64,000 bases of DNA from assembly GCA_965203905.1 (NCBI GenBank), contig CBDBDQ010000003.1, forward strand, positions 42,777-106,776. The letters are read 5' to 3'. A program made the position numbers and the translations under genes. Numbering within the stretch: position 1 is the stretch's first letter; each line of letters begins with the position of its first letter. The stretch comes from Spirochaetia bacterium (GTDB lineage: Bacteria > Spirochaetota > Spirochaetia > SZUA-6 > Bin103). Under the pieces are notes generated by a model that worked only from the letters and a program-made list of their open reading frames with translations, was not told where the DNA came from and made no database searches. Of this stretch, positions 15,689-37,508 are shown in pieces.

Positions 15689-15717
15689 GGAGAGCTCCTT
15701 GGCCGCAGTAGCGGCTA

Positions 15718-15765: not shown

Positions 15766-15771
15766 GACACA

Positions 15772-17037: not shown

Positions 17038-17127
17038 CGTGATAACCCTCCTGTGGCCATGGCTCATTCAGGCACCGGGCGGCCAATCCCGGCACGATAC
17101 GGGCCAGCTACGGCCCGTATTTCGCCA

Positions 17128-18265: not shown

Positions 18266-18370
18266 TCAGGTTCCCTCCAGAATTGCCCCGGCGCCCTGTA
18301 GCGCCTGCGAGCTTCGGCCGGCAAGGGTGGGGTTGAACCACGCTCAACGCTGGTCCCGCCGGCTCCAGTT

Positions 18371-18595: not shown

Positions 18596-19093
18596 TCAGC
18601 CCTCCCAGCCGATGCCGCGCTGCCGCAGGCTCACAAAGCCGCGCCGCGCGACGATCACGTGGTCGTACAGGTCGATGTCGTGGTACTCCGCTGCCGTCCT
18701 CACCTTCCGCGTCACCCGCGTATCAGACCCGCTCGGGCACGGGTCGCCCGAGGGGTGGTTGTGCACCACGATGAAGTAGGGCGCGCCCCTCACGATGGCA
18801 GGGCGCAGGATCTCCGCGACCCGGATCGAGGCGGCGTTGACCGTGCCCTGGTAGACCGTCACGGCCTCCAGCAGCTCCGACTTGGTGTTCAGCAGCAGCA
18901 CGCGAAGCTGCTCCTGCAACAAGCCGCCCATGTCCATGCACTGGTTCGCCACGGCCTCCGGCGTGTTCAGCACGGGGGGATCACCAGCGGCGCCGCCACG
19001 GCCCGGAGGGGTGGCGGCGCCGTACTGCAAGGCGATCTCCTGGAGCAACTGTTGGTTGCGCTTCAGCGCGTCCAGCAGATCCGTCATCAGCAC
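18596..19093 (-). CDS. radC: RadC-like JAB/MPN domain protein
   Basis: QEQLRVLLLNTK...GTVN...VHNHPSGDPCPSGSD...DHVIV. Confidence 0.92.
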   Translation of the reverse strand: MLMTDLLDALKRNQQLLQEIALQYGAATPPGRGGAAGDPPVLNTPEAVANQCMDMGGLLQEQLRVLLLNTKSELLEAVTVYQGTVNAASIRVAEILRPAIVRGAPYFIVVHNHPSGDPCPSGSDTRVTRKVRTAAEYHDIDLYDHVIVARRGFVSLRQRGIGWEG

Positions 19094-19497
19094 GCCTCCG
19101 TGAGCGGCTTCAGCGTCCGCGCGGCGCGGATCAGCGTGTCCTTCACGGTCGCCTGCCGCTGGCCGTCCAGGTCGTTCCAGTACGCAATCACCCCGCCCCG
19201 ATCCTCCGTCAGGCCGGTGGTCTCACGGATCAGCTTCTCCAGAACGGCACACGCGGCCCGCCTGACTGCGGTCTCATCGCCGCCGCTCAGCTTCAGCAGC
19301 CCCACGCGGTAGCTGGCGATCAGCAGGGCGCCCGTCGCGCACCAGCAGCACGCATCCGGCGCGGTAGGCGACACCGGGACACCGGCGCCGTTCTGCGCTG
19401 CCGCTCCCTGCGTCCATCCGATGCCCACAAAGCAGGCGGCGCGCTCCAGGAGCGCCGCCGCCTTGTCGTTGACCTCCAGGTTGGTCAGTACCCGCAT
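19087..19497 (-). CDS. phage hypothetical protein (DUF6197-like)
   Basis: GWTQGAAAQNGAGVPVSPTAPDACCWCATGAL...WND. Confidence 0.65.
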   Translation of the reverse strand: MRVLTNLEVNDKAAALLERAACFVGIGWTQGAAAQNGAGVPVSPTAPDACCWCATGALLIASYRVGLLKLSGGDETAVRRAACAVLEKLIRETTGLTEDRGGVIAYWNDLDGQRQATVKDTLIRAARTLKPLTEAC

Positions 19498-20642
19498 CAG
19501 TCCAGGGCCTCGCTCGGCAGCCGGATGTCGTAGCACTCGTCGGCGTTCATGCACCCGCCGTCGGTCATGTGGACCGTGCCCTCGACGCCGATCCGCTCCA
19601 CGGTCCGCCATCGGCCGTCGCTCGGATCGCGCACCCGGTCACCCACGTGCACGGGATACTCGTCCTCATCCTCAACGACCTCGGCAGGCGGGTCGTACAC
19701 GTCCGGTTGCTCGGTGTGCCCCGGCCACTCGGCAGCGTGCGTCCACCGGTCGGCAGCCGTCTCAGCATCGGTGTGGTTGGGAAACCGCTTGGTGTGGCGC
19801 CGCTCTGGCAGGCGATGCCGGTCCAGCACGTAAGCCTCGACCGTGTAGGTGCGCTCCACCATCGCCGGCGACAGGCGCCGCTCAGCGGTCGCGAGCGTGG
19901 CGTTGCGCCCGTTGATCCACTCATCCGATACCCAGCGCACACGGCGCGTAGGAGCGCGCTCTGGCGGCTCGCATTCGCAGGTCGGGCACGGCGGATCGTC
20001 CTCCCCGTGGTCGACGTGATAGAGGCAGACCGCGATGTCGTGCTTGGCCTCCGTGGCGTCGCAGCGGCACAGCGCGCAGCGTTGCGGGTGGTCGGGCAGC
20101 AACTCGTTGCCGGTGAAGGTGTCGACCGTCACGTCGCCGGTGGCGTCGATCCGATACAGGCCATCCTCATCGCCGTGTGCGCGCCGGTAGTCCTGCGCCG
20201 CCTCCACGCGGTCCTTCTCGTCCTTGAACGGCCCGCTCAGGACCGGCTCCACGTCGCCCATGATCGACAGCAGGTGCAGCTTCCGGTCCGGGGAGCGGGG
20301 CAGGTCCCGCAACTCGCTCAGAAGCTGGCGCCCGTCCTCAAGCTGCTCGTCGTCGGCGCAGTACAGCGTCACCATGTGCGCAAGCTGCTGCACCACGCGG
20401 TGGCACTCCTGCTCGGTTGCGATGGCCTGCGCCGCCCGTAGCACGTCGATGTCGCGGATGGTGGGGTCGAGCATCAGGTCGCGCTCGCGCGCCGCCTGCG
20501 CCTCCCGGGCCTCGGCCTGCTCCTGCAGCACCGCGTTGAGCGCGGCGCGGAGTGTCTCTGCCTCGCCCCGATCCACCAGGATCGACACGTTCGGCATGTT
20601 CAGGTTGACCCGCCCGTTGGCGTGTAGCGTCGCCGTCGCCAT
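19497..20642 (-). CDS. phage-like hypothetical protein with CxxC motifs
   Basis: Acidic 381-aa ORF coupled on both sides. Confidence 0.6.
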   Translation of the reverse strand: MATATLHANGRVNLNMPNVSILVDRGEAETLRAALNAVLQEQAEAREAQAARERDLMLDPTIRDIDVLRAAQAIATEQECHRVVQQLAHMVTLYCADDEQLEDGRQLLSELRDLPRSPDRKLHLLSIMGDVEPVLSGPFKDEKDRVEAAQDYRRAHGDEDGLYRIDATGDVTVDTFTGNELLPDHPQRCALCRCDATEAKHDIAVCLYHVDHGEDDPPCPTCECEPPERAPTRRVRWVSDEWINGRNATLATAERRLSPAMVERTYTVEAYVLDRHRLPERRHTKRFPNHTDAETAADRWTHAAEWPGHTEQPDVYDPPAEVVEDEDEYPVHVGDRVRDPSDGRWRTVERIGVEGTVHMTDGGCMNADECYDIRLPSEALD

Positions 20643-20899
20643 CACGAACGCCCCTCGGCCACGCAACCGGCACACCGACCGTCTGTGGTCGGTGTCGCCA
20701 TCGTGGCCTCGCACACGTAGCACACGTGGTCGTGAACCACGTCGTCGACGTCGTTCGCCACCGGCCCGTAGCCCATCTCTTGCAGCAGGTCGCGAGCGTT
20801 GCGCAGCACGTCGAGCCGCTCCTGCACCGATGGTGGAGGCTGCCGGTCAGCAGCCTCCACCATCACTCGCAGGGTCTCTTTGTCGGTAGGTCCGATCAC
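20642..20899 (-). CDS. phage-like hypothetical protein, zinc-ribbon C-terminus
   Basis: CYVC...CAGC; overlaps neighbours. Confidence 0.55.
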   Translation of the reverse strand: MIGPTDKETLRVMVEAADRQPPPSVQERLDVLRNARDLLQEMGYGPVANDVDDVVHDHVCYVCEATMATPTTDGRCAGCVAEGRS

Positions 20900-21204
20900 A
20901 GCCCGACGACCTCGAACAGGCCAAGCTCCTGAAGCTCAAGGCCGGCCTGTACCCATGCCTCGCTGTCCGCGGCGCGGCTGCCGGCGTCGTCCTCTTCGCT
21001 CAGCGCCGGCAGCTCCATCGCCATGGAAGCGCCCCACGGCCTCTCTTCGACGATCTCAAGCGCGCTGCCGGCGGCGATCGGCGTGCTGCCGTCGTCCCCG
21101 CGCAGGCACCATGAATCGAGCGCTCGCGTGGCCGTGACAACGTTTCCGGCTTCGAGGCGCCCGTCCACGTCGCCGGGTTCGACCCAAACAGTTCTACCGT
21201 TCAT
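20896..21204 (-). CDS. first ORF of the leftward phage-like operon
   Basis: GGAGG RBS, ATG at 21204. Confidence 0.55.
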   Translation of the reverse strand: MNGRTVWVEPGDVDGRLEAGNVVTATRALDSWCLRGDDGSTPIAAGSALEIVEERPWGASMAMELPALSEEDDAGSRAADSEAWVQAGLELQELGLFEVVGL

Positions 21205-21237
21205 CGGTATCCCTCCTGCTCCCGCGCTCAGGCGGGA

Positions 21238-21340
21238 GTGGTATGCGGCATGCCGTGGTGTCGAACCACGTCCCTGTCGGGAGCACCTGCGCGCGCCGCT
21301 GTTGGTTGATCTGCACCCCGTGTGCCGCTCCCGGCACATC
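21238..21340 (-). ncRNA. structured leader with tRNA T-arm-like hairpin
   Basis: CGTGG-TTCGACA-CCACG followed by GCATGCCGCATACCA; flanking hairpins. Confidence 0.35.
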
Positions 21341-21488
21341 GCTCTACGAGTGGGCTGCGGTGCCCTTCATCCACCCGAGACGCCATAGCAGCGGATCGAA
21401 GCTCGGTGGCTCCCCGCCCGGCTCTGTGTGTGTGGCGCGCGCTGCGTTGCGCGCCTGCTGCCTCCTTCGCAAGCGTTTTATCGCTGTC

Positions 21489-21527
21489 GACAATTAACAT
21501 TGTCATAATGTAAATGAGCAAAGTCAA
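21489..21527 (-). promoter_or_regulatory. sigma70-type promoter with palindromic operator
   Basis: Minus-strand TTGACT-17 nt-GACAAT in an AT-rich patch; GACAAT-TAAC-ATTGTC palindrome overlaps the -10 box. Confidence 0.65.
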
Positions 21528-22642
21528 GCACCCTCAGGCACTTTTTTGGCAGGCCGGCAGACTCCCGCAGATCAGGGCATTACGCGGCTTTCACGCCGTC
21601 CTTTCGCCTCGCGGCGCCGACCGTGGACCGCTCGTCGGCGCGCTCGGTGCGCCCCGATAAAGGTCCGTCACTGTGTGCCGTGATCTGTGCGGTGTCCCTT
21701 GCCGGCCAACATGGCCCGGCACGCCGGCATCGAGGCGGAGTTCACCGACGGCGCATCCGCTCGCGGCGCGGCGTTTGACGTGTGCGCGTCAACCGGCGCG
21801 GCTGCGCACCCGGCTCTCGTCGGGATCGCGCCCGGCGGCGCACGGCCGGCGGCTGCCGCTTCCCCCCACCCGCCCGGGCGCTCGCTCACCCCGCGACGCC
21901 GAATCTGGCGGCGCCCCAGCCGGCGCCAGCGTGGGCTCGCCACCCGGCGCGGCACCTACCCACGGCCCGACGCTCGCCCTTCCCCCGTCACTAACCTATG
22001 CTCAGGCCTGCGCTCAGCGTTCAGCGTGGTGCGGTGCGCGTGGTGCTCACGCTCATGGCCATGCGCTCAGCGGTGCGCGTGGTGTGGTGGTAGGGTCAAC
22101 GCCCGTGTCGCTCGCCCGTTCAGCTTCGCGTCATCGACGGGCAGCCCGCCGCCGGACGGCCGCATCCGTCTCCGGCCGTCCGCAGATCCCCCAGGGACCC
22201 CCGGCCACCCCCACCCCGCCCCCCGCTCAGTTCCCGCCCCGCGTTGCGCGCGGGGCTTCATACGCCGGCGCGCGTGCCGGAAAGTTTCTGAAATCCGAGA
22301 AAATGGATCCGGAACTGGGGCCGCAAGGGACCCACCGGCAGAATCTGAAAGTGGAAAGTCAGGGACCCGCGGGAACGGACTCCGGGCGCGGGCTGGGAAC
22401 CAGGGACCTACCAGGGATAGGACTCAAGCCTCAAGGGGATGAGCCGAAGGTAGTGTCCGTTTTTCTGAGAAGTCCGTTGACAGGCGGTGCCGGCACTTAT
22501 ATATGCCGGAGATATGCAAAATTTTGGGAATTAGATCCAATAATAACCAAGGAGGGGCGTCGTGGTGAATGATGCAATGCGACGGGATAGGCGGATGGAG
22601 TTGGTTCGGCAGTTGGCTCTGGAGGGGCGAAGCCCAGGCAGA

Positions 22643-26895: not shown

Positions 26896-27091
26896 AACGG
26901 GCTGCACGAGCGGGTAGCTCACTTGGCCGGAGTACCAGGAGACGCATTTGCTGCCGCCCTGGGGCGGGTGCCCGCACCGAGTTGGGGGAGGTGCGCCGGG
27001 CACACCTCCGGTTCCCCAGCGCTCGCCCCCCCTCGGGAATCACCGCGCGGCACCGAGCGCCTGCTGGCGGCAAGTCGCCGAGTGATTTGCC

Positions 27092-27119
27092 ACTTCCGAT
27101 AACTGTGGTTCTGTCGTCC
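27092..27119 (+). other. dif/Xer-like site S1
   Basis: ACTTCCGATAA-CTGTGG-TTCTGTCGTCC. Confidence 0.7.
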
Positions 27120-27191
27120 TCGGGATCGCCGCTTGCCTACGCCGTGGATCCCTCCCCCCTGAAGCCGCCGGCCGTGATAACGGTGTCCGGC

Positions 27192-27501
27192 ATGAGCACC
27201 GCCCTGGAAATCCTGATTGGTGCCGGCGGCACGGTGGCCGCCTTGCTGGCCGTGCTGCTGCCGGTAATCCGGGCGCAGGGCTCAAACCTGCGCCGTTGAG
27301 CTGGATATACGCTACGCGGGGACCTGCGCGCCGATGTGGCATCGTTTGCGCGCCGACGTGGGCGAAGTGCCGCGACCTGCACGCGCTGAGCGATCGTGTG
27401 GCCCGCATCGAGGGTGCGCCTACGACCGGCCCTGGCGGCCCACCAACGGCTCGCCTGCAGCGGCACCCCAGGGCGGTCCCCCGGAGGCCACCGCCGAGTG
27501 A
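27192..27501 (+). pseudogene. decayed small TM/coiled-coil gene (...DRVARIEG...)
   Basis: MSTALEILIGAGGTVAALLAVLL..., frameshifted; 3' part duplicated at 28770-28877. Confidence 0.5.
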
Positions 27502-27507
27502 CCTGCC

Positions 27508-27531
27508 ACTTCCAGAGTGCTTCTGTTCACT
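27508..27531 (+). other. dif-like site S2 (4-bp deletion in left arm)
   Basis: ACTTCCA-GAGTGC-TTCTGTTCACT after CGCCGAGTGACCTGCC. Confidence 0.55.
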
Positions 27532-28067
27532 GCGATCACCACCGCAAGCTGAGTTCCCCGTACGCGCGCGCTGCCCATACGAAGGCATTGACCAAGTTTT
27601 CGTAGCGGCGGTAGAGTGGCGTTCTAAGTGGCGGGGCTGTAGCCAGGTAGCAACTGACCAGGCCCGATACCAAACGTCAAATCGCCATCGCGGGCGTCGG
27701 CGTCCATACAGTGTGTGCTGCATACGGATGCGCGGGTCGCGCTGCTCGGTTGCATCAAAATGCAGGCGCGTGGGTTGACCCTGCGGGGCGCAGGGTGGTA
27801 GGGGGTTTGCCTATGCTGGCAATAGTACTGGCAATCGTAGGTGCGCTAATCGTGGTTGCAATTGACGTAGTGGTACGTTACCTGCAGTCCGATGATAGCC
27901 TACACAGCAGGCGGAAAGGACGGCTTTAAGTTCCGGTTGCAGGAACGCTGGCGCCGGCCCGGCGACTGCGCTATGGGTCCGATGCGTGTTGTGATGCTGT
28001 TAGTGGTGGGCTCGCCTGCAGCGGCACTTGCGGCGCCAGTCGAGGATGGTGACGCTGTTGGCCCGCA

Positions 28068-28733
28068 ATGGAGGGTGTACCATACACAGTGGCTCGCGAA
28101 ACTATCAATCCAGATCACCAGAGCGCGTACCCGTTGCTCTTTTTGAATGTGATTCACTTCAAGGACGCAGCACGGTTAGTCGAGTCGGAGGTTTCCAGGT
28201 ATCGCGCTGACCAGGGCTTGCAACATACCGAGGATCCTTTGGAGAGTTTTCCTAACAAGGACTATTGGATGTCAGCAAAGGCCGTATCACACTTTAACCT
28301 TGGAACTGCGTTGGAACTAATGATGAAGTTGGTTTTGGTTATCAACGGTACACCGGTTGGACAGACGCACTCACTGCTTGCACTGCACAATTCTCTGTCA
28401 TCGAAGTGGAAACGACGCATGCAGGAAATGTTCAGCAAGGCAGAGAAGAATCATGGATTGTTAAAGTTTGTCCGAATTAGGCGTTCTGATGCGGCTGATC
28501 TACCAGATCCCGGCGACGATCGTGACGTCATCGGGTTGAGAGGTACACTGGCGTACCTTGACGATGATGCTGTGCTGTCAAAGGCGCGATACCTATGGAA
28601 ACATATGAGTGAAGGTAAGTGGCTGTACTACTTGGATGACATTACAATTCTTACCGACTTAATTGATCAGGTATTAGCGAAACTAGTTGCAGAGAACCAG
28701 ATTCCTGGACTGACGGTAGGGAAGCAAGACTAA
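28068..28733 (+). CDS. HEPN-like protein
   Basis: FNLGTALELMMK...THSLLALHNSL...RY pattern; low GC. Confidence 0.6.
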   Translation: MEGVPYTVARETINPDHQSAYPLLFLNVIHFKDAARLVESEVSRYRADQGLQHTEDPLESFPNKDYWMSAKAVSHFNLGTALELMMKLVLVINGTPVGQTHSLLALHNSLSSKWKRRMQEMFSKAEKNHGLLKFVRIRRSDAADLPDPGDDRDVIGLRGTLAYLDDDAVLSKARYLWKHMSEGKWLYYLDDITILTDLIDQVLAKLVAENQIPGLTVGKQD

Positions 28734-28883
28734 ACCTTTGGCCCTGGCACCCACGCCAGACTTGTAGAGGAGCGCGTTGCCCGCATCGAGGTGCGCTGAG
28801 CGGCCCCTGGCGTCCCACCAAACGGCTCGCCTGCAGCGGTGCCCAAGGGTGGCACCTCGGAGGCCACCGCCGAGTGACCTGCC

Positions 28884-28911
28884 AATTCCTATTAGACTGC
28901 TTCTGTCGCCT
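28884..28911 (+). other. dif-like site S3
   Basis: AATTCCTATTA-GACTGC-TTCTGTCGCCT. Confidence 0.65.
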
Positions 28912-28960
28912 GGAGCGCTGTGCTGGTTCACTTTCCGCCGGATTGATCGTCGAAATTAGG

Positions 28961-29845
28961 TTAGGGCGCTTGGTACGGAACGGACAGCATTACGGATGCC
29001 GGCACCCCTTCGGGCCTGCCCTTCGTCCGGGCATCGAGTTGCCGTTTCTCCAGTTGGGTCAAGTACGTCCGGCGTAGATCGTTCGGAGTAACCGGGTCGA
29101 CGCCCGCCTGCTTGGCGATGGTGCGCACCCGATCCATCACCGCCTGGGCGGTCATGGCCTTCGGCTGGAGCTTTTCGCCCTTGGCAACCGGGCACAGCAG
29201 GGCTCCGGGCCAGTCGCCGCGGCGCGCGATCCAGGCGCCGATCGCTTCCTTGCCGCCGTCTGTCGCGTAGACCTGCCGCTCGTCGTGGCGAATGACGATG
29301 GCCCCGGACACCTGGTCGTAGTCCGCGAGCTGCAGCGCGGCTGCTTGCGAGCGCTGCAGGTCGGCGCAGTAGAGTAGCGCGAGCATGGCTGCATCACGGG
29401 CGCCGATAAGATCGGTACCAAGCGCCGCGAACAAGCGGCGAACCTCGTCCCGTTGGACGTATCGTCCTGCACGCCGGCGCGGCTGTGGCTTCTCGTTCCG
29501 TTGGTCCTCGACAGCGATCCGCGTCTTGTCGTCGACCAGCCCGAGTTCCCATGCTATGCGCACCGTACTCCGGACCCCCGAAAGCATGTGGTTGACGGTG
29601 CCGGCGGCGACGCCGCGGTCGAGCATGACCGAACGCATTTTTTGGACCTGCTGCAGGTCTATCTGCGACCAGTCGAACGCCGTCGCATCTGTGACGGCGT
29701 CGTCCGTGAAGATTGCCACTGCGCAGTCGAGTTCCCGTTCCATGCCGAGGCGTCCGGACGGGTGGAGGCGGTCGAGATAGACGGCAGCGGGATTCTGTAC
29801 TGGCGCGGTGTTGCTGGGCGCGACCGACTCGTCCGCGGCTTGCAC
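28961..29845 (-). CDS. tyrosine-recombinase paralogue lacking catalytic residues (copy 1)
   Basis: Homologous to 13503..14567 but LQRSQ, NDLRR, no GKGRK loop, no GH...Y segment. Confidence 0.85.
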   Translation of the reverse strand: MQAADESVAPSNTAPVQNPAAVYLDRLHPSGRLGMERELDCAVAIFTDDAVTDATAFDWSQIDLQQVQKMRSVMLDRGVAAGTVNHMLSGVRSTVRIAWELGLVDDKTRIAVEDQRNEKPQPRRRAGRYVQRDEVRRLFAALGTDLIGARDAAMLALLYCADLQRSQAAALQLADYDQVSGAIVIRHDERQVYATDGGKEAIGAWIARRGDWPGALLCPVAKGEKLQPKAMTAQAVMDRVRTIAKQAGVDPVTPNDLRRTYLTQLEKRQLDARTKGRPEGVPASVMLSVPYQAP

Positions 29846-29855
29846 TTTGGCAGCT

Positions 29856-30254
29856 TCAGAAGCTCGCTACTGTGGCGGTCGACAAGCTCTGCCTTCCGGT
29901 AAGACTGCAACCTATCTCCGATTTTAGAAGAGTTCCTGCTCTCGTCTCTTCACCTCCGATAGCACGTTCGCGGCAGCTTCCCTCTCTACCAATAGAGAGA
30001 TGATTTTGCTCATTCGTAGGCAGCTCGAGGCGCTCCCGAGATTCCTCCACCGAAGCAGGGAATCGTTTGTACGCGACGATAGCGGCATGTCCATCATTGA
30101 CCACTTGTATGCTATGCGGGATGGCTTGGGAAGCTCGATACAGTTTTCCCCGAAATTGGTTGCACTTCTCCTCAAGGCTCGCCAACCGGTTTTCTGCCCG
30201 CCTCAGTTCCAGTAACAGATCGGCCATGTTTCTCTCGCGTTCGTCGTTGCTCAT
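29856..30254 (-). CDS. hypothetical coiled-coil protein (3' end uncertain, possibly truncated at S4)
   Basis: MSNDERERNMADLLLELRRAE...; low GC. Confidence 0.45.
   Translation of the reverse strand: MSNDERERNMADLLLELRRAENRLASLEEKCNQFRGKLYRASQAIPHSIQVVNDGHAAIVAYKRFPASVEESRERLELPTNEQNHLSIGREGSCRERAIGGEETRAGTLLKSEIGCSLTGRQSLSTATVASF
29892..29908 (+). other. dif-like half site S4
   Basis: CCTTCCGGTAA-GACTGC then unrelated sequence. Confidence 0.5.
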
Positions 30255-30403
30255 CGCTTCATCCTTTAGCTATCTTCTGAGGATCGCGGTCTTGAATACG
30301 ATGGGTATTGACTCTGATCAAATGGCAGGTCACGACCAATAATCAGTGCGTCTCCTACAATATGATCTCAGCAGATATTGGAATGTGGCGGCTTCAGGCC
30401 GCC

Positions 30404-31384
30404 TCATTTCTTATAGCCTACGAGACGCACCTCTGTCAACGCGGTACTTCGACTTCCGATAATCCGCTTCTGTCCCCTGGGAGCGCCGTGTGGTTTCACC
30501 CCCCGCTGGCTTGATTCTCGGATTTTGGCGCTTGGTGCTGAACGGATAGCACCCCTTCGGGCCTGCCCTTTCGTCCGGGCGTCGAGTTGCTTCTTCTCCA
30601 GCTCGGTTAAGTACGTCAGGCGTAGATCGTTCGGGGTAACCGGGGCGACGCCCGCCTGCACTGTGATGCTGCGCACCCGCACCATGACGGCCTGGGCGGT
30701 CATGCCCCGCTGTCGGATGCGTTCGCCCGTACCGACGGGCGCCAGGAGTGCGCCCGGCCAGTCGCCACGGATCGCGATCCAGGCGTGGATCGCTTCCTTA
30801 CCGCCATCTGTCGCGTGGACCTGCCGCTCGTCGTCGCGAACGGTGACGGCCCCGGACACCTCGTCGTAGTCCGCGAGCTGGAGCGCGACTGCTTCCGAGC
30901 GCTGAAGGCCGGCGCCGTAGAGCAATGCAAGCAAGGCTGCATCACGGGCGCCAATTGGATCGGTACCGGGGGCCGTCGCGAACAGGCGCCGAACCTCATT
31001 TCGTTTGACGTATCGTCCTGCACGCCGGCGCTGTTGCGGTTTCTCGTTCGGTTCGTCCTCGACAGCGATCCACGTCTTGTCGTCTACCAGCCCGAGTTCC
31101 CAAGCTATGCGCACCGTACTCCGGACACCCGAGAGCATGTGGTTGACGGTGCCGGCTGCAGCGTTGCGGTCGACCATAGCCGAACGCAGCTTTTCGACCT
31201 GCAGCCGGCTTATCTGCGACCAGTCGAACGCCGTCGCGTCTGTGCCGGCTTGGTCAGTGAAGATTGCGACCACGCGGGCGAGTTCCCGGCGCATGCTGCG
31301 GCGCCCCGACGGGAGGAGGCCGTCGAGATAAACGGCGGCGGGATTCTGGTCGCTGGGGGCGTCCGACTCGTCCGCGGCTTTCAC
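30404..31384 (-). CDS. tyrosine-recombinase paralogue lacking catalytic residues (copy 2; C-terminal frameshift relative to copy 1)
   Basis: GLQRSE, NDLRL, no GH...Y; close paralogue of 28961..29845. Confidence 0.85.
   Translation of the reverse strand: MKAADESDAPSDQNPAAVYLDGLLPSGRRSMRRELARVVAIFTDQAGTDATAFDWSQISRLQVEKLRSAMVDRNAAAGTVNHMLSGVRSTVRIAWELGLVDDKTWIAVEDEPNEKPQQRRRAGRYVKRNEVRRLFATAPGTDPIGARDAALLALLYGAGLQRSEAVALQLADYDEVSGAVTVRDDERQVHATDGGKEAIHAWIAIRGDWPGALLAPVGTGERIRQRGMTAQAVMVRVRSITVQAGVAPVTPNDLRLTYLTELEKKQLDARTKGQARRGAIRSAPSAKIRESSQRGVKPHGAPRGQKRIIGSRSTALTEVRLVGYKK
30452..30478 (+). other. dif-like site S5 (5-bp spacer)
   Basis: ACTTCCGATAA-TCCGC-TTCTGTCCCCT. Confidence 0.65.
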
Positions 31385-32108
31385 TTCGGCAGATCCAGAA
31401 GCTCGCTGCCGTGGCCGTCGACAAGCTCTGCCACCGTCTCGGTATCCCACTGTTCTCTCGAAAGCACCATGCCCGGCTTCGGATCCAACGCGGCCGCGGA
31501 GGCCGCGGCCGCCGGGACAGCAGACGCCGTAACAGGCCCGCGGTGTCGGCGATGCCAACGACGACAGCATCTCGCGGGTCTGGAATGTCGTCGCTGAACA
31601 GTACCGCCAGTTATACGCCGCTTCACGTCCCGGTCAGCGGCGAGATCGGCGGTCGGGTACCGCGGCGATGGGAACACCCACAGGAGAACCGCCCCTCGCG
31701 GCGTTGGAGAATGCCCTCACTCGACGATACGTTCCAGTACACAGGCGCGGATGCGCTGGCCTTGATCGGCCGTATGCCGCACTCAGTAACGGGTGTCCCG
31801 CGCCTCTGACGCCTGTGCGATTTACGCGAGTGTCGGATCGAGAAGGTCTGGCGCAGGCGTCGCATCGGCCACGAAGAGCTGTTCGGTCCATGAGAACCGC
31901 ACCCGCCAAGGGAGTAACGCAACGACCAGTCGGGCACCCGCGCGAACTACCAGCTTTCGGCATCCGCCAAGAGCCGCACTACGTAAATCTTGGTTTGGGC
32001 GGGCGGTTCGCAAAGCGCGCTTGGCCGAGCCGATGGAGACATTTGGTCACCACCTGTCAGCGTTCACTGTGTTCCGACCGGCGCCGTGGGCCTCCTCTCG
32101 GTTGGACA

Positions 32109-33902
32109 TTAGTAACCCATTGCTTTCTTCAGTTCATGATCGACCCAAAGTCGACTGAATACAACGTTGTATTGCCCTCGACCTAACGAGGTCTCCCCAT
32201 TAAAACCCTTGATCCACGGCTGGACTACAGCAAACCGTGGCGCGATCGGACCAAACAACATCCAATAGCTATCGATACTATTCTGACCCAACTCTCTCAT
32301 GATGGCGTTCTGCTCCTCGGCAGTAACCGGCTCGACACGTCGCTCCGCATCATCAACCACCGAATAGGTATGCAATGTATTCTGTATCCAGTCCGCGACA
32401 TCAAAAGGGATCCCCTTATGTGCGGCCACCGCACTTATCATCTCGAATTCTCCCCTCTCTAAACGGTGATTATATCCTTCCTTGTCCAACATGACAACTT
32501 CAGCATCTACGTCGATCCCACTCCAGTATTCGGAAAGCAATTCCAGGTATTGCAAATCGAACACTCCTGAAGAAACCAACTCAGTCCGAAAGCCATCTGG
32601 ATATCCTGCCTCGATGAGTAGCTGTTTGGCGCGATCACGATCAAATCTATAGCCGTCCTTCACCGGATCGCTCCACTCTTCGAATGGAACGATTGCTTCT
32701 GCAAGCGTCCTACTAAACAGTCCTTGCGGAACTGTGTCTGCATGACCGCCGTACAACCTGTCGTTGGCCTGCTCAACATCTATCGCCATCTGCATTGCCA
32801 TTCGCACTCTAATATCGCTAAATGGCGCGCGCTGAGTGTTTATCCCAACAGCATTCTCTGACCGTACGTAAAACACATGAGGCATGAGATGTCGGTGCTG
32901 GACCAGAAAGCCCTCAAGAACATGAAGGTCTTTTAGTTGAGAGTTTCCGATAGGACCAACGTAATCTATCTTTGCCGTACTAAGCGCTGCCAGACGGCTT
33001 TGCTCGTCCACAAGAACGAGCGCCCTCAACTCATCGATATACGGCAAACGTCTGTTGTCCGCATCGAAGCCCCAGTAGTTGGGATTTCTTAACCAAGTAA
33101 TCGAGCTTCCTTCTACCCAGTCAGTCAGAACAAACGGGCCGGTTCCTAGGAGATTCTTCCAATCCGCTACATCACCGAACTCTTCGATAACCTCCGGCGG
33201 ATATATCCAGGAGCTCCAGCCGTCGAATAAAAGGCGGAACGCGTGAGGATTAGGCTCCTCTAAACTGAACACAACTGTGTATCTGTCGGTTGCCTCGACA
33301 GATGCAAAATTCAGTCGATTTATGTCATACTTCAGTTTGTCATCGCCGAGACCTAAAATGCGATGGAAGTTGTATGCGACATCATAAGCGGTAAGTTCGC
33401 GTCCGTTAAGTGGCGCCTTGTCATGCCATTGAACCTCCCTACGAACACTGACAACGTAAGTTCGCGGATCACGCTGCTCCCAGCTCTCCGCCAAGGCACC
33501 GGCTGTGTGCTCCTCGTGGTTGAGCACCTGAAAGTCGAAAAGGTCGCGTCCTAACGCCCAGTTTGCAATTCCCAGTTTCTCAACAACTCCCGAAATGTAG
33601 ATATACGCAAATTGAGAAAGGAGCATATCAGTACCTCTGTTATTGTGTGCTAGAGCGAACGTGATTACACCGCTGTGATTCACCGTTGTCGGGTCCCATT
33701 CGCATGGCGATGAACAACGCCAATTGCAGCAGTCCGTAAAACAAGCATCCGACGAGCAGTAGACACCGTCATCGCGCTCCTCATCGCCGCTTGCACACAA
33801 TACGGTGGTCACACAGAAAAAACATGCAACAAGAGCCGTCTGAGTGTTATTCAGCAGAAATCTCATCGAGAAACTAGGATGATCCGCCATCATTATACAC
33901 AC
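32109..33902 (-). CDS. orphan ABC transporter substrate-binding protein, family 5 (start uncertain)
   Basis: LAESWE, WHDKAPLNGRELTA, GTGPF, PFSDIRVRMAM, AKQLLIEAGYPDGF; lower GC; no permease nearby. Confidence 0.88.
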   Translation of the reverse strand: MCIMMADHPSFSMRFLLNNTQTALVACFFCVTTVLCASGDEERDDGVYCSSDACFTDCCNWRCSSPCEWDPTTVNHSGVITFALAHNNRGTDMLLSQFAYIYISGVVEKLGIANWALGRDLFDFQVLNHEEHTAGALAESWEQRDPRTYVVSVRREVQWHDKAPLNGRELTAYDVAYNFHRILGLGDDKLKYDINRLNFASVEATDRYTVVFSLEEPNPHAFRLLFDGWSSWIYPPEVIEEFGDVADWKNLLGTGPFVLTDWVEGSSITWLRNPNYWGFDADNRRLPYIDELRALVLVDEQSRLAALSTAKIDYVGPIGNSQLKDLHVLEGFLVQHRHLMPHVFYVRSENAVGINTQRAPFSDIRVRMAMQMAIDVEQANDRLYGGHADTVPQGLFSRTLAEAIVPFEEWSDPVKDGYRFDRDRAKQLLIEAGYPDGFRTELVSSGVFDLQYLELLSEYWSGIDVDAEVVMLDKEGYNHRLERGEFEMISAVAAHKGIPFDVADWIQNTLHTYSVVDDAERRVEPVTAEEQNAIMRELGQNSIDSYWMLFGPIAPRFAVVQPWIKGFNGETSLGRGQYNVVFSRLWVDHELKKAMGY

Positions 33903-34711
33903 CTATAATATGATCATTATCGATTCGAAGTACCTTGGGGGCGTCATTTTTGTTCTTGCCATACCAGTTGTAGACTAACAGAAATGTGTCATAGGGGCCC
34001 CGCCATAGTAGACTAATTTTAGCGTCAAGAGGGTATCTCTGTATCATACGAAAGAGACGACCGAATTCAGTGTTAGGAACGGACGTAAGGTCGTCTGAAA
34101 TGCTCGTTCTAAAAAGGACTTCGACGGCGGTTGGATTCTCATCTGTCAACTTCTAAAAAAGCCTGGTAATGCCCCGCTCCTTTTGAAATGAAGTAGGCAG
34201 AATAAAACAATAGAGACCACATACATATCTTCAACACCAATTTACCGGTAGTGGAGCAAAACGGGCGCCGTAGCGGATGTTGTATACTGCACCGTCTCTT
34301 GGCAAAGAACAACCAGTAAGCCAGACAATACAGAACCAAGAAGCACAATATAACGCCCATTCCGAGAAATACGTACATGTACACATCCCGAATACTAAGA
34401 TCCGGTAATCTTCCTATTACGGAAAAGGTATGAACGAATACGGTGTAGTCATTCGTGGTAAGGCTCGATCGCGGCACACCAAACCGAGCGAAGTACTCAT
34501 TCCGATACCACCAGCCGGAAAAGTAGATGAGTGCGAGAAGAAATAGCCAGTCGGTTGGTGTTGTTCGTCTCACGGAATCGTGCCCGCATAGACGACGTCT
34601 ATTCATCTGTAATATGTAGCGTCGTCCTCTTCGAAAAAGCCGTCTTGGGGGATTGCTCCAGAATGGGGAGTCGCGATGCCGTGCTTGATCAGCCGCAGTA
34701 GATTCTCTCAT
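33874..34711 (-). CDS. hypothetical membrane protein in two frames (34139..34711 and 33874..34149)
   Basis: TM segments (LALIYFSGWWYRNEYFARFGV); low GC. Confidence 0.5.
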
Positions 34712-34804
34712 CAGTGATTCTAAGCTTAGCCGTGTTGGGGAGATTCGTCCAGAGGTCGACGGTTCGTCAAGAGCAGTGTGGATCCCACCGCCGAGTGACC
34801 TGCC

Positions 34805-34832
34805 ACTACCGATAATTCACACTCTGTCGCCT
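34805..34832 (+). other. dif-like site S7
   Basis: ACTACCGATAA-TTCACA-CTCTGTCGCCT after CGCCGAGTGACCTGCC. Confidence 0.7.
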
Positions 34833-35317
34833 CACCCCGCGGGGGGATCGCCGCGAGCCTTGACCCCGTGGCACCAGTCGAGGATGGTGACGCCTGTGAC
34901 CACGGACGAATGGGAGTGGAACTTGACCGGGTGACGATGCGGCAGATAGCGATCCGCGTAGGCCACAGCTGGACCAGTTCTACTACTTCCACCTGGACGA
35001 GTATGAGGTCTACCGGCGCTGGGAGAGAGTGCTGAAACGTCGCGCAGCAGCGATTGAGCGAGAACACGACCGGAGCGCGGCGTTCGCCGAGGCAGCCCAC
35101 GCCAGCCGGACTTCCGGTAAGACTTGGCCGGTCGGCCAAATTTGAACGGCACGACTCATGAAGGACTTCTGGCCGAATTCTGTTCAGGCAGCGGACCCGG
35201 AAAGCGATCGCACGGCGCCAGCTCGCCGGTGCATAGGGGACGCGGCACCGTGACGCGAGCGCAAAAGCGCGCTCGGGACGCCGCCGAGCAGGCTTACGCC
35301 GAACGCACCTTGATTGC

Positions 35318-36130
35318 TTGCGCGCTACGCGACTTCGAGGCAGCCCGGCGACTACCCCGCGCGTCCACCCGTTGATGTTCGTGTCGCCGGAGCGCGGGCG
35401 CTGCTGGGCGGCGCTGACCCTGGTGGCGGAGAGGAACACCCCCGCGCCACCGCCTCCACACTTGCTCGCCGCGGTGGGCGCCGAGCTCGCCGACGATGCG
35501 CCCGGCGTGGCCGCCTTACGCGGCGTCCCGGTGCACCGCGCCGAGACGCTCGACGGCACCTACTTCGCCCACCGCGTGGCCGACGCGCACAAGCGCCGAG
35601 TGTGGCGCCGGCGGATACGCAACGCGCACCGGTACGACTGGGGTTATGACTGGCGTGAAGCGCAAGCCGAGGCGCATAGGCGATCCGGCGCCAAGGCCGG
35701 GAATATCGCCAGCCAGTGTGCTGCAGATGCGGACCGCCGCGACCTGGCGCCGCTCTACCGTGCTGATGCCGAGCACCACGCTGCCGAGGCCGAACGGCTG
35801 GAGCGCGACGTAGCGGCCGCGCGCGCCCAGCGCCTCCTAGTGCGCCGGCGGTGGCGGATCGCGGGCCGGATCGCGGGCCGGATCGCGGGCGGTTGCGGCG
35901 CTGTGCTGCTGGTGCTGACGTTCGTGTCGCGCTGGCATTTGGACCTGCGCCGCGTGGTCAGCACCCCGTTGTCCGGTTTCGTGGTAGTGGCGTTCCTGGT
36001 AGGTGTCTTCCTGGTATCGTTCGGCGCCGAGGAAGGCGACCGGCGGTTCATGCTGGGCGGTGCGCTGCTGGCCGTGGGCGCGGCGGCACTGTTCGGCGCT
36101 TGGTGGTGCTGGTGGTGGTGCGCTCGATGA
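35318..36130 (+). CDS. hypothetical membrane protein
   Basis: Three C-terminal TM helices; 12-bp GGATCGCGGGCC (RIAG) x3 microrepeat. Confidence 0.5.
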   Translation: MRATRLRGSPATTPRVHPLMFVSPERGRCWAALTLVAERNTPAPPPPHLLAAVGAELADDAPGVAALRGVPVHRAETLDGTYFAHRVADAHKRRVWRRRIRNAHRYDWGYDWREAQAEAHRRSGAKAGNIASQCAADADRRDLAPLYRADAEHHAAEAERLERDVAAARAQRLLVRRRWRIAGRIAGRIAGGCGAVLLVLTFVSRWHLDLRRVVSTPLSGFVVVAFLVGVFLVSFGAEEGDRRFMLGGALLAVGAAALFGAWWCWWWCAR

Positions 36131-36219
36131 ACGACTCAGCCTACGCGGTAGCGCGCAGCGTCCGGTAAACGGGTGTTCTGCGAGGCTTGACGCCGCGCCA
36201 GTCGAGAATGGTTACGCCT

Positions 36220-36600
36220 GTGAGGGCTGACCGGCCGGGCGGCACCGTGCCCGCACCCGAGTACATCGAGACGGCCGACTACTTCGCCAAGGCGCTTGAG
36301 CTGTGCGGCCCCGGTGCCTGGATCACAGTCCAGGGTGCCATCCAGGTCATGCTGCAAATCGGTTGGAACACCATCGTCAAGGAGAAGGAGAAGGCAGTCT
36401 ACTCTGCGGTCTACAAGAGGATGCGGAAGACCAGGCGTCATCCAGCGCTCGCGTTGCCGATCGACATGAGCCGCAGCCGCGACGGCCTCTGGTGTAACCG
36501 TCCGGCTCTCTCGCTGCCACTTCCGGGAAGGCAATTTCTGACTACATGCTTCGGCGTCAAGGGGATACCTTCGCCAAGCGTCGCACAACGGCCAGAGTGA
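36220..36600 (+). CDS. hypothetical winged-helix-like protein, paralogue of 1..358
   Basis: ETADYFAKALELCGPGAWITVQGAIQVMLQIGW...KAVYSAVYKRMR...LALP. Confidence 0.55.
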   Translation: MRADRPGGTVPAPEYIETADYFAKALELCGPGAWITVQGAIQVMLQIGWNTIVKEKEKAVYSAVYKRMRKTRRHPALALPIDMSRSRDGLWCNRPALSLPLPGRQFLTTCFGVKGIPSPSVAQRPE

Positions 36601-37342
36601 TGCGCGCATCGCCAGCGGCGCTGTGTGCATCAGAAGTCGGCACACCCCTGCACTCGGCGGCCTCTTCCAGATTCGACCATGCCGTGTCCCGGCCATGAGT
36701 GTCCGCCTCAGCTTGCATCGCACAGCGCCAGGGCACTGCCGGTAGTATCATCCCGTGGCGCGCGGCGGTCTGTTCCAGCATGCTCCGGTCAAACTCGGCG
36801 TTCCAAGCAATCACCGACGAGGCATTTTCCAACAGCCGCGCCAACTCGGCGTGTACTGCGGGCCATGGCCGTGCTCCCATAGCCCGCAGTCGTGCACGGG
36901 TCAACCCGTGCACATCGCTGGCATCGCGTGGGATCGGCCCTTGCGGCAGACTCACGGTATTGAGAAGCACACACCCCGTGGTGTCGATCACGGCCACCTC
37001 CAGCACTTCGCTACGCCGGCCCAATCCGGTAGTCTCCGTGTCGATTACAAACACATCTCTACGATCCAGCAGCTCCCCAAGTGTCTCGGCCTGCCAAGGT
37101 GCTCGCGCCTTGCGTGAGTCCTGCGAAGCAGCCCTGACCGGCTCCGGGTCAGGGGACGGCGCGGGGGTGGGTTTCGGGCTAGGTTCGGATGAATCCCAAG
37201 GGATCCCGCCTGATTTCCAAGGTGCCGTCGCCCGTTGTGCCGGAGTACTCGTAGGCTTCACCTGCCGCAAGGCAGACCGGGTGAGCCCATAGAGCAGTAG
37301 CACGAATCCACCCAGGATCAACACGCTAAGGACTATGCCCAT
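36557..37342 (-). CDS. DEDDh 3'-5' exonuclease with N-terminal TM anchor
   Basis: VIDTETTG, AWNAEFDR, HSAAGDA. Confidence 0.9.
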   Translation of the reverse strand: MGIVLSVLILGGFVLLLYGLTRSALRQVKPTSTPAQRATAPWKSGGIPWDSSEPSPKPTPAPSPDPEPVRAASQDSRKARAPWQAETLGELLDRRDVFVIDTETTGLGRRSEVLEVAVIDTTGCVLLNTVSLPQGPIPRDASDVHGLTRARLRAMGARPWPAVHAELARLLENASSVIAWNAEFDRSMLEQTAARHGMILPAVPWRCAMQAEADTHGRDTAWSNLEEAAECRGVPTSDAHSAAGDARITLAVVRRLAKVSP

Positions 37343-37480
37343 CCAGCTATCTTACTACGAGTGCGCTCCGCCGAAGAGCTGCACGGAAAGCGACCCGCTC
37401 GGGTGAGGCGTTTCCGACACCTCGTCGCCGTTCATGGACTCGTTGCCCTTGCAGCCGTGAAGCCGTCCATCTATCTGCCA

Positions 37481-37508
37481 ACGTCCGGTAACTGCCGTTC
37501 TGTCGCCT
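37481..37508 (+). other. dif-like site S10
   Basis: ACGTCCGGTAA-CTGCCG-TTCTGTCGCCT. Confidence 0.7.

Follow-up and report, generated by a model that had tools for sequence, protein, structure and literature searches.

A one-way array of short repeats in an uncultured spirochaete appears to be built from hybrid variants of the lineage's own dif, the chromosomal XerC/XerD site, which bound unrelated gene modules in the variable part of a large island. We lean towards an origin of the array by cassette exchange at these hybrid sites, with the host's Xer recombinases as the most likely enzymes; a housekeeping recombination site may have become a gene-collecting device in this organism.

The window, that is, the whole stretch of 64,000 nucleotides analysed, contains four matches to an 11-6-11 pattern at up to three mismatches (27092, 28884, 34805 and 37481), all on the plus strand, and none of 100 dinucleotide shuffles contained any such match. 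The motif is real and chance is excluded as its source, in agreement with an earlier note that had described it from the sequence as recurring in a single orientation. Using a weight matrix in which spacers of 5–8 nt were permitted and a strong site was one of 20 bits or more, we found six strong sites in the window, and the full tally is six well-kept and four decayed sites, on the plus strand throughout. These are listed here together with the conserved minus-strand region that includes a rejected candidate:

27092..27119, plus strand: dif-like site, the first well-kept one of the array; 6-nt spacer, 2 mismatches, 35.7 bits, left arm matching host dif at 11 of 11 positions
27508..27531, plus strand: decayed dif-like site with 4 nt deleted within the left arm, preceded by a U segment (see below); aligned with other copies
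28884..28911, plus strand: dif-like site; spacer GACTGC, 3 mismatches, 31.1 bits; the right arm belongs to a recombinase-like cassette
29892..29908, plus strand: half site; left arm (13.0) and the same spacer GACTGC as at 28884, right arm replaced (-0.3)
30452..30478, plus strand: dif-like site; 5-nt spacer, 34.2 bits, left arm matching dif at 11 of 11 positions
31385..31470, minus strand: conserved region upstream of a recombinase-like gene, including the rejected '31435 site'
34805..34832, plus strand: dif-like site; 6-nt spacer, 34.0 bits
35110..35126, plus strand: left arm and spacer only; left-arm score 18.5, right-arm score -4.4
36158..36186, plus strand: weak decayed site; 7-nt spacer, under 12 bits, counted solely by the conserved cassette leader after it
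36519..36546, plus strand: dif-like site; 22.7–23.7 bits, 10 nt beyond the stop of the exonuclease gene
37481..37508, plus strand: dif-like site, the last of the array; 1 mismatch, 32.7 bits

Nine of the ten sites originally proposed are thereby upheld (27508, 29892, 35110 and 36158 as decayed), and the site at 36519 had been overlooked. The tenth, at 31435, proved on alignment of six copies to be a conserved stretch upstream of a recombinase-like gene; in copies C and F2 of this cassette the true site lies about 75 nt beyond the equivalent position, and it is missing from the window copy. The GC content per 1 kb ranges from 0.49 to 0.70 over the array, as the differing GC of its cargo had suggested. 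The repeat exceeds 28 bp at some copies, with an upstream flank conserved for about 115–150 nt at 27508 and 28884 and for about 25 nt at 27092 and 34805.

The canonical dif of this genome is a single chromosomal copy with an AT-rich spacer at C5:5,579,639. Strong positive GC skew stops at 5.58 Mb, and dif lies 0.2 Mb before the maximum of this genome's cumulative skew (maximum at 5.78 Mb, minimum at 1.50 Mb). Of 24 related genomes of the family, 17 each have a single AT-spacer copy, and across 15 sequences the 28 bp of dif are conserved and its flanks are not. Being single-copy, kept in relatives and situated at the replication terminus (the terminus as seen in this genome), the reference site is the true dif of the lineage. 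When 28 sites were compared with it, 15 had a left arm equal to that of dif at 10 or 11 of its 11 positions and 14 an inner right arm equal to it at 7/7 positions, but right-arm position 8 was G in 18 and position 9 was C in 20, where dif has TA. The spacers are 5 nt long in one site, 6 nt in 17 and 7 nt in ten, and are GC-rich where that of dif is AT-rich. Across the 28 sites the arms are far better conserved than spacers or flanks, five positions being invariant or nearly so (left 5; right 3 and 7); the contrast between conserved arms and variable spacers drawn from the window alone thus holds more widely, and it argues for selection on protein binding. With two 11-nt arms matching host dif around a central region, which in sites of this type spans 6–8 nt, the sites have what we read as an XerC/XerD-type, dif-like layout. 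The earlier note had assigned them to the dif/Xer type, and this comparison with the dif at the GC-skew terminus, which it had proposed, bears that out: they look like variants of the host's single dif placed between unrelated modules. Their right arm, described there as unusual, is so at positions 8–9, where the hybrid departs from dif; its first seven bases are already those of the lineage's dif.

A scan of the 8-Mb genome returned 34 hits of at least 20 bits, against four in a reversed-genome control, and six loci hold 28 of these 34 strong sites. Arrays reach up to 11 sites, and 26 of the 27 sites in multi-site clusters share one orientation; the sites bound modules of about 0.3–4.4 kb, mostly single genes of about 1 kb. 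No second site occurs near the true dif, and every array lies elsewhere. Four arrays lie within, or next to, copies of a single large island that have diverged from one another and have wholly different module sets; their cargo includes an Mrr nuclease, M28 and S8 peptidases, a WD40 protein and a methylase. In this island the array of the window forms the variable part. The flanks of contig C3 are 96–98% identical to chromosome pieces, and small co-oriented site clusters occur in three other species of the genus. The backbone of the island comprises the following features:

3662..22367, strand not assigned: conserved island backbone, common to C5:1.924-1.943 Mb at 72–89% identity and partly to C5:4.768-4.778 Mb and C4:1.6-6.6 kb
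13503..14567, minus strand: Xer-like tyrosine recombinase (Pfam E 4.2e-30)
16660-17067, minus strand: SSB
18596-19093, minus strand: RadC-like protein
19087-19611, minus strand: DUF6197 protein

Where modules are shared between loci, homology starts or stops at the sites, with several end points 1–10 nt from site centres; the left arm travels with the upstream module and the right arm, usually together with the spacer, with the downstream one. At 28884, 96% identity to a C5 copy begins within the spacer while the two left arms disagree at 6 of their 11 positions, and at 30452 homology to other recombinase-like cassettes begins 1 nt from the site centre. Similarly, 35062-35120 is 92% identical to the stretch preceding the site at C5:4803761. 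The recombinase-like cassette is flanked by a site at each end in copy C; copy F2 retains the right-hand site alone, because the 3' end of its gene is truncated.

The cargo and the conserved segments beside the sites are as follows:

27351..27507, plus strand: U segment; 3' portion of the coding sequence for a small membrane and coiled-coil protein (SmO family, gene broken here)
28068..28733, plus strand: cargo gene of low GC, 221 aa; no family found
28769..28883, plus strand: second U segment, a frameshifted remnant of the SmO 3' end (repeat family D6)
32109..33902, minus strand: orphan solute-binding protein SBP_bac_5 (E 2.9e-57)
34859..34899, plus strand: conserved cassette leader directly after a site, the shared start of several cassette genes (repeat family D7)
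35318..36130, plus strand: cargo gene, 270 aa, with codon-position GC as in a real gene; weak ExoD match, no family at threshold
36557..37342, minus strand: DEDDh 3'-5' exonuclease, from profile searches

Among the labels first given to this cargo, the tyrosine-recombinase fold, the SBP_bac_5 binding protein and the DEDDh exonuclease stood, and nothing in Pfam, PADLOC or NCBIfam backed the HEPN-like label of 28068-28733. Intact copies of SmO have their stop codon 6 nt ahead of the left arm, and intact orthologues from two other species end in ...PEATAE, followed by the stop and then the site; in relatives the family is mostly unlinked to sites (2 of 28 loci with one). Part of the conservation adjacent to the sites is thus no more than that of this shared small gene, which counts against the reading favoured below. 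Further copies of the cassette leader lie at 28033-28061 and 36195-36223, the latter 90% identical to 34871-34899; a sigma-70 consensus scan did not flag the leader at 34859..34899.

A recurrent cassette, about 50 nt from the right arm, encodes a catalytically dead Xer-like protein, of which the window holds two copies:

28961..29845, minus strand: dead Xer-like protein gene, copy 1; 294 aa, open frame, ending ...VPYQAP
30404..31384, minus strand: dead Xer-like protein gene, copy 2 (P0001); 326 aa as called, with a C-terminal frameshift, reading through the site at 30452

Copy 1 covers the Pfam Phage_integrase profile at positions 2–148 of 172 only, and on alignment to PDB structures the lysine hairpin is absent and the first histidine is N. 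The same holds for the family: each of its 21 aligned members has N where the first histidine would be, and the lysine hairpin is absent, as is the segment carrying the second histidine and the tyrosine; profile matches of these proteins end ahead of the tyrosine region. Copy 1 has no stops and is 82% identical to P0003, and a comparison of copies 2 and 1 over 270 codons gives a dN/dS of 0.39. Of about six copies in this genome, a single one has an open full-length frame, namely copy 1, which is altered at two glycines invariant across the family. The description of these genes as dead recombinases is correct in that the catalytic residues are absent, but decay is not the whole account: they form a conserved family in which these residues are missing by design. 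We infer that the protein may be an accessory factor that binds DNA to mark, license or block sites.

In the reading that we favour, modules would move as small circles that integrate into, or excise from, an array site by Xer-type tyrosine recombination. Since the sites are direct, a single module can in principle enter or leave as a circle. No catalytically complete recombinase was found within the modules, and the most likely catalyst would be host XerC/XerD, a pair present in every genome and found in this host with full catalytic residues; the intact Xer-like recombinase of the island may help. With differing spacers and an altered right arm, the array would be shielded from recombination with the true dif. 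Counting against this reading, spacers differ between most neighbouring sites, which would prevent these from undergoing two-strand exchange of the classical kind. We also counted against cassette exchange that 4 of the 10 window sites are decayed, that the arrays lie away from dif, unlike classical Xer-exploiting elements, that all but one of the dead-paralogue copies in this genome lack an open full-length frame, and that the public data, all assembled contigs, gave no direct sign of activity. A more specific version, to which we give only tentative credence, is an Xer-based gene capture system (a 'dif integron') in which single-gene circles would be gathered in one-way arrays at hybrid sites in mobile islands; the dead Xer paralogue would bind the altered right arm, and together with it either host XerC/XerD or the recombinase of the island, as the active partner, would recombine the sites away from the septum, leaving the true dif untouched.

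Alternatively, the array could be a self-contained, integron-like platform in which the recombinase at 13503-14567 is dedicated to the array sites, acting alone or with the dead paralogue; the resemblance to dif would then stem only from shared ancestry of recombinase and site, with no role for host XerC/XerD. The enzyme is catalytically complete (the alignment shows R, K, H-x-x-R, H and Y; the best NCBIfam match is XerC at 148.5 bits, under the model's cut-off), and its frame is open in three of the four island copies, no copy having been found on C4. The geometry is constant, with the recombinase on one strand and the sites on the other, 10–13 kb upstream of its start, in three island copies and one second-species locus; moreover, right-arm positions 8–9 differ systematically from dif, as expected for another binding specificity, and the dead paralogue derives from the 13503-14567 type (47% identity). 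On the other hand, the gene lies 12.5 kb from the first array site, and no such recombinase was found within the 20–40 kb examined around the site clusters of the related genomes G001 (four further loci), G005 and G006. Conversely, G012, G018 and G033 have the recombinase type but dif as the sole match at the three-mismatch level, and no motif enrichment was detected around 160 distant homologues (1.83 Mb; 9 hits against 17 in the control). The left arm of many sites is, in addition, identical to that of host dif. We regard a dedicated platform as unlikely.

Less probable still is that the array is a fossil of past insertions at a dif-like site, or of duplication and homologous recombination among repeated small-gene units, now inert and with sites decaying neutrally. 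The decayed sites in the window would fit such a history, as would the broken state of most dead-paralogue and SmO copies in this genome. So would the boundary at 29893, beyond which the recombinase-like cassette shares no homology with any other copy and which looks like a deletion at a 5-nt microhomology, unlike site-specific exchange. Public assembled contigs likewise contained no excision junctions, contig joints being explicable by paralogous repeats. It is the conservation of the arms above spacers and flanks, the wholly different module sets of the four island copies and the same site type in several species that speak against an inert relic. Finally, single-gene modules with a repeated motif between them would also fit a classical integron whose attC sites are unusual, or a regulatory or REP-like repeat spread over the genome, and integrons are described in some spirochaetes, but this explanation is refuted at the level tested and we give it almost no weight: the integron integrase model TIGR02249 (cut-off 265) scores the backbone recombinase at 80.5 bits and the dead paralogue at 23, the layout of the sites is the 11-6-11 of dif rather than that of long imperfect palindromes, the strong hits are few and clustered rather than scattered as in a REP, and the window contains no Rfam family and no tRNA.

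The array nevertheless resembles integrons, and the term 'integron-like' used for it at the outset is sound as an analogy: a conserved platform with a tyrosine recombinase adjoins a unidirectional array of small cassettes, mostly of one gene, which differ between copies and each carry a recombination site at the end. It lacks an IntI-type integrase and attC-type sites. attC sites are imperfect palindromes of 57–141 nt recombined as folded single strands, whereas the conserved core here is 27–29 nt with dif layout, suggestive of short double-strand sites, and the longer flank is coding sequence; in addition, the cassette genes lie on both strands, several with their own conserved leader. Elements that exploit Xer (IMEX) have no active integrase of their own, lie between directly repeated dif-like sites, can stack in tandem and insert at the chromosome's dif. 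As in these integrative mobile elements, which include the CTX and TLC phages and the gonococcal island (PMC6744903, PMC9226527, PMC4246890), direct dif-like sites flank modules without a catalytically complete recombinase; unlike them, the arrays are in islands elsewhere than the chromosomal dif, and the modules are mostly single genes rather than phages. In the Acinetobacter pdif system, many 11-6-11 XerC/XerD-type sites divide accessory DNA into small modules, whose combinations vary among related replicons; the spacers vary, same-spacer sites are thought to recombine, and the sites alternate in orientation to give C and D modules that are necessarily added in pairs (PMC13141974). Our array shares with that system dif-like sites with varying spacers that bound small modules in differing combinations. 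It differs in that the clustered sites are direct, without C/D alternation, as the earlier note had remarked for the window; in its right-arm positions 8–9, unlike host dif; and in its carrier, apparently a large island with chromosome-like flanks rather than a Rep_3 plasmid, in an uncultured spirochaete. The multimer-resolution sites cer and psi have dif-like cores that are active only between direct repeats (10.64898/2026.02.23.706985), and some of our sites similarly have about 115–150 nt conserved on the left-arm side; this flank, however, is the coding end of a small gene and is absent from most sites, and one resolution site per replicon would suffice where here there are 6–11. A precedent for a hybrid dif-like site on a mobile element is Tn6022 of Acinetobacter baumannii, which has a dif-like site with one half matching host dif and the other not, adjoined by an Xer-like gene; recombination was shown with the element's XerC-like protein and host XerD, and that study also reports a protein resembling tyrosine recombinases that has been repurposed to bind DNA (PMC11014353). 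The array sites are alike in keeping the left arm and changing right-arm positions 8–9 (GC in 18–20 of 28 sites, TA in dif); but Tn6022 has a single site and an adjacent active XerC-like protein, whereas here arrays reach 11 sites, the site-adjacent protein is without the Lys, both His and the Tyr, and the active paralogue is encoded 12.5 kb away.

The 11-6-11 pattern (left arm, spacer, right arm), searched for with at most three mismatches, was found in the window at 27092, 28884, 34805 and 37481, always on the plus strand, and not at all in shuffled sequence; the same search over the full assembly (7.99 Mb in five contigs, C1 to C5, of which C5 is the chromosome and the window is C3:42777-106776) returned 12 matches. 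A weight matrix trained on 14 genome sites, chosen by coordinate, gave 17 matches at 20 bits or more, 14 of them the training sites, and one match in a reversed-genome control. When spacers of 5-8 nt were allowed, there were 34 strong matches compared with four in the control, and the window contained the following sites.

Dif-like sites in the window (good sites from the weight matrix with 5-8 nt spacers)
27092, plus strand: good site
27508: decayed site, left arm with a 4-nt deletion
28884, plus strand: good site
29892: partial site, left arm and spacer only
30452, plus strand: good site with a 5-nt spacer
34805, plus strand: good site
35110: partial site, left arm and spacer only
36158: weak site
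36519, plus strand: good site
37481, plus strand: good site

Five positions proposed in the earlier note (27092, 28884, 30452, 34805 and 37481) are good sites, and four others (27508, 29892, 35110 and 36158) are decayed, partial or weak; 31435 has to be removed from the list, as it is part of a conserved region upstream of a recombinase-like gene. Genome-wide, 28 of the 34 strong matches fall into six loci, one is the chromosomal dif described below and five are isolated, a number close to the control level of four.

Loci of dif-like sites in the source genome
C3, window: 6 sites, all on the plus strand
C4, 12 kb: 9 sites at 20 bits or more, 11 at 18 bits or more, all on one strand
C5, 4.789-4.800 Mb: 6 sites
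C5, 1.902-1.916 Mb: 4 sites, one inverted
C5, 5.354-5.363 Mb: 2 sites
C5, 0.615 Mb: 1 site

The direct orientation that had been noticed in the window holds generally, with 26 of the 27 sites in multi-site clusters agreeing. The genome's only inverted pair of strong sites (C5:1913598 and C5:1913867, ~240 bp apart) is in the 1.9-Mb array of C5. Viral contigs gave seven single matches, in low-GC contigs and never in arrays, which are most likely due to chance.

We compared these sites with the dif of the lineage. When 24 genomes of the same family were scanned, 17 each had exactly one copy of the motif, with the same arms and an AT-rich spacer, and aligning 15 of these loci showed conservation of the 28 bp and none of the flanks. 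The source genome has its single AT-spacer copy at C5:5,579,639, at the end of a strong positive GC skew that runs up to 5.58 Mb and is flat beyond (the cumulative skew of C5 has its maximum at 5.78 Mb and its minimum at 1.50 Mb). This is what a chromosomal dif looks like, and the weight-matrix scan of the genome found no additional dif-like site near it. At C5:6.458-6.461 Mb the genome has a pair of neighbouring Xer genes, both with a full set of catalytic residues. Since the single conserved AT-spacer copy at the end of the GC skew has the same arms, the right arm, previously described as unusual, is the normal right arm of the lineage, and only its positions 8-9 depart from dif. Among the 28 strong non-dif sites, the left arm equals that of dif at 10-11 of 11 positions in 15, and right-arm bases 1-7 match dif fully in 14; position 8 is G in 18/28 and position 9 is C in 20/28, where dif has T and A. 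Spacers of 6 nt (n = 17) and 7 nt (n = 10) prevail over 5 nt (n = 1), are mostly GC-rich and vary between sites, although a few types recur. Because the left arm and inner right arm are dif-like and positions 8-9 and the spacer are altered, the array sites are, by sequence, hybrid dif-like sites. An alternative, in which tandem integrative elements of an ordinary integrase family use the motif as their att core, was dropped because the single conserved copy per genome marks the motif as dif-like and because the supposed integrases are catalytically dead. Insertion at a tRNA or small-RNA gene, considered because an upstream repeat ends in CCA, was also dropped, as no tRNA, tmRNA or Rfam family was found.

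The arrays have few modules in common and their cargo varies. In the window it comprises a 221-aa protein without known family, an orphan solute-binding protein, a 270-aa protein with no family at threshold and a DEDDh exonuclease; profile search thus bore out the orphan binding protein and the exonuclease previously named as cargo, and a gene described as HEPN-like (28068-28733) had no match in three libraries. Other arrays carry an Mrr nuclease, M28 and S8 peptidases, a 1492-aa WD40 protein and a methylase. Immediately before the first site of the window lies a ribbon-helix-helix (CopG-type) gene (26557-26895), overlapped by a frame (26892-27299) that crosses site 27092; the two may be a truncated toxin-antitoxin pair. 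The commonest recurrent module is a 1-kb unit with a recombinase-like gene. One further genomic copy of it (copy C) has sites at both ends (4799327 and 4800350), and another (copy F2) has the right-hand site (5354170) only, because the 3' end of the gene is missing together with the left-hand site. Between the window copy and that at C5:1.916 Mb, 96% identity begins inside the spacer, and 6 of the 11 left-arm positions are different; in other copies homology begins 1 nt from the site centre or stops 9-10 nt from it. The window copy has an identical spacer on both sides (28884 and the half-site 29892), and its right border resembles a deletion at a 5-nt microhomology. The 1.9-Mb array of C5 and the C4 array share a 693-nt cargo segment (89% identity), with different neighbours. 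This pattern of modules and borders, drawn from few independent cases, fits exchange at the sites. The sequencing data, four runs of one study and all in the form of assembled contigs, contained no clean excision or circle junction. Contig joints link repeated parts (the recombinase-like gene and the U and leader segments described below) at depths above the contig's own, and for these reasons can derive from paralogues or other strains; in run X2 some modules had low cover, which is unusable as evidence.

The conserved segment U, present before some sites, and the leader, present after some, are the two ends of a small gene, SmO, whose product has a membrane helix followed by a coiled coil. 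Intact SmO genes in two related genomes (G001 and G006) end with a stop codon 6 nt before the left arm, show in-frame length changes and belong with more than 100 homologue clusters. In some cassettes cargo lies between leader and U, and several other cassette genes begin with the leader, two of them with lipoprotein-like signal peptides. U as accessory or structured DNA of the kind found at cer was rejected, since it is the coding end of a gene, although it may still be relevant to recombination. The family is multi-copy in relatives, where of 28 loci only two have a site after the gene, so that SmO was rejected as an obligatory partner of the sites; nor is it a neighbour of the true dif, as no homologue lies beside dif in the source genome or in 15 loci of 14 relatives. 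For both reasons we take SmO to be the most frequent cassette gene rather than a piece of the machinery. No named family was found for it, a protein atlas giving only unnamed clusters (scores 0.90-0.91), and a promoter scan did not flag the leader, with counts near shuffle expectation. Dense SmO-family clusters occur in G004 (C1:122194-177924, 19 matches), G006 (C156:22800-65628, 12) and G012 (C1:1757027-1758433, 9), with no dif-like site after the genes in the loci read.

The recombinase-like genes of the window were aligned with the host Xer proteins and with the recombinase of the adjacent backbone.

Xer-like genes in the window
13503-14567, minus strand: backbone recombinase, all catalytic residues present
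28961-29845, minus strand: dead paralogue, copy 1
30404-31384, minus strand: dead paralogue, copy 2

Copies 1 and 2 fall in a family for which metagenome assemblies supply at least 40 clusters, with 56-84% identity and a usual length of 290-300 aa; the family shares 47% identity with the backbone recombinase. Its members keep both catalytic arginines, lack the Gly-Lys hairpin, have Asn for the first histidine (invariant in 21/21) and lack an 18-residue segment, the one carrying the nucleophilic tyrosine and the second histidine. Alignments with profiles and with solved XerA/XerD structures end before this segment. Because these losses are shared across the family and dN/dS between copies 1 and 2 is 0.39 (270 codons), the dead paralogue is a conserved pseudo-enzyme; the description 'dead recombinases' was right about the missing catalytic residues, but mere decay does not account for them. 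In the source genome copy 1 is the sole open full-length frame and has two family-invariant glycines changed, copy 2 has a terminal frameshift and the remaining copies have stops. Of 92 genomes from the order, this is the only one in which the dead type was found, and the search for DNA of close relatives gave nothing above 47% identity in genome contigs or above 41% in metagenome contigs. The gene ends ~50 nt from the right arm, and C-terminal read-through peptides of a few homologues look like a translated site.

Upstream of the array, window positions 3662-22367 are collinear with C5:1,942,511-1,924,409 (72-89% identity) and partly collinear with C5:4,767,671-4,778,172 and C4:6563-1586, from which we take it that one large island exists in four diverged copies. 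Its backbone genes, on the minus strand of the window, include the Xer-like recombinase, an SSB, a RadC-like gene and DUF6197; a search of 10 backbone frames, several later judged to be on the wrong strand, gave no match in PHROGs. In three copies the array follows the backbone on its downstream side, with the relative strand unchanged, and on C4 the adjacency would cross the contig end. In G001, a second species, one locus combines a recombinase of this type (65% identity) with three backbone genes in unchanged order, and three co-oriented sites come after them. C3 may be a strain variant rather than a plasmid, because it has long stretches 96-98% identical to chromosome pieces and assembly contamination is 7.9%; long stretches 91-100% identical to C5 occur on all of C1-C4, which may likewise be strain variants.

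Several other elements were seen in and around the island. At the left edge of the shared backbone is a gene (3669-6446) whose 925-aa product has a LapA-like domain as well as collagen-triple-helix repeats, and at the right edge of the island-shared region a ~620-bp repeat (57012-57640) with some 70+ chromosome copies (70-96% identity), perhaps a target of insertions or a small non-autonomous mobile element. Between backbone and array, 31-nt inverted repeats (22518-22548 and 26091-26121, 90% complementary) surround 3.5 kb of lower-GC DNA with a DUF2806/Abi-alpha-like gene (23452-24414) that looks like a separate inserted element. Outside the backbone, genes of defence type and an IS110-family element are found in the window. 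The latter (41616-43383, transposase 41941-43227) has copies at C5:668353-670118 (99.8% identical) and C5:1998283-2000049 (95%). A fused IS110/IS1595 transposase fragment lies at 44374-44943, and three tandem 42-nt repeats (84-100% identical) at 43685-43818. The defence-type set (46281-54626) comprises a SMODS/DncV-like nucleotidyltransferase (46281-47522), an AAA_5 ATPase (50406-52160), an MT-A70 methylase (52209-52907) and an N6 methylase with a TaqI-like specificity domain (52914-54626). Elsewhere on C5, clusters of at least three adjacent tyrosine-recombinase genes (5304392-5309720, 6312482-6318005 and 2711371-2714154), two of them near-identical copies, resemble 'recombinase in trio' elements.

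The best-supported reading is that tyrosine recombination at the dif-like sites would let modules in and out in the form of circles. Host XerC/XerD would be the simplest catalysts, since the left arm and inner right arm are those of the host dif and since site clusters occur without an island-type recombinase, and the reverse: none was present in the 20-40 kb fetched around clusters in G001 (four loci), G005 and G006, and three genomes have such a recombinase and no such sites. Beside distant recombinase homologues the motif gave 9 matches compared with 17 in the control in 1.83 Mb, and in G012, where the recombinase lies 5.5 kb from dif, no second site was found within 60 kb. The change at positions 8-9, together with a dead paralogue ending so near the right arm, suggests a second specificity. 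The variety of spacers speaks against two-strand exchange occurring freely among all the sites; it would fit exchange limited to sites with the same spacer, or else a single-strand exchange finished by replication, as in cholera-toxin phage integration. For the dif modules of Acinetobacter, recombination between sites with the same spacer has been proposed (PMC13141974). A study of Tn6022 describes a hybrid dif-like site, tested to work with an element-encoded XerC-like protein and host XerD, and a recombinase-like protein reused for DNA binding (PMC11014353).

Xer/dif is the near-universal system of chromosome-dimer resolution, and the few known cases of its hijacking by mobile DNA are those of filamentous phages at dif, of plasmid dif modules in Acinetobacter and of one transposon-borne hybrid site. 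The layout here would be new: up to 11 hybrid dif-like sites in one-way arrays with single-gene modules. These arrays are set in the islands of an environmental spirochaete with a large genome, alongside a conserved recombinase paralogue that has lost its active site. A full-text literature search (main texts of a limited collection) found no earlier account of dif-like cassettes in one-way arrays, nor of such sites next to a dead Xer paralogue. The cargo of nucleases, methylases, peptidases, exonuclease and secreted small proteins suggests an accessory or defence gene store. If active, the arrays would represent integron-style gene collection arisen independently on the Xer platform, and a natural example of a mobile system kept apart from the essential dif by an altered outer arm and GC-rich spacers; if this is true, the pseudo-recombinase would have a testable role. 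The arrays are of clear interest for the study of Xer and of mobile elements. The label 'integron-like' is an analogy for the layout, an array of gene cassettes; by profile search this is not an integron. Known Xer-exploiting elements would work similarly, although the arrays here are located away from dif, and so would the Acinetobacter dif modules, in which, however, the sites alternate, whereas here they do not.
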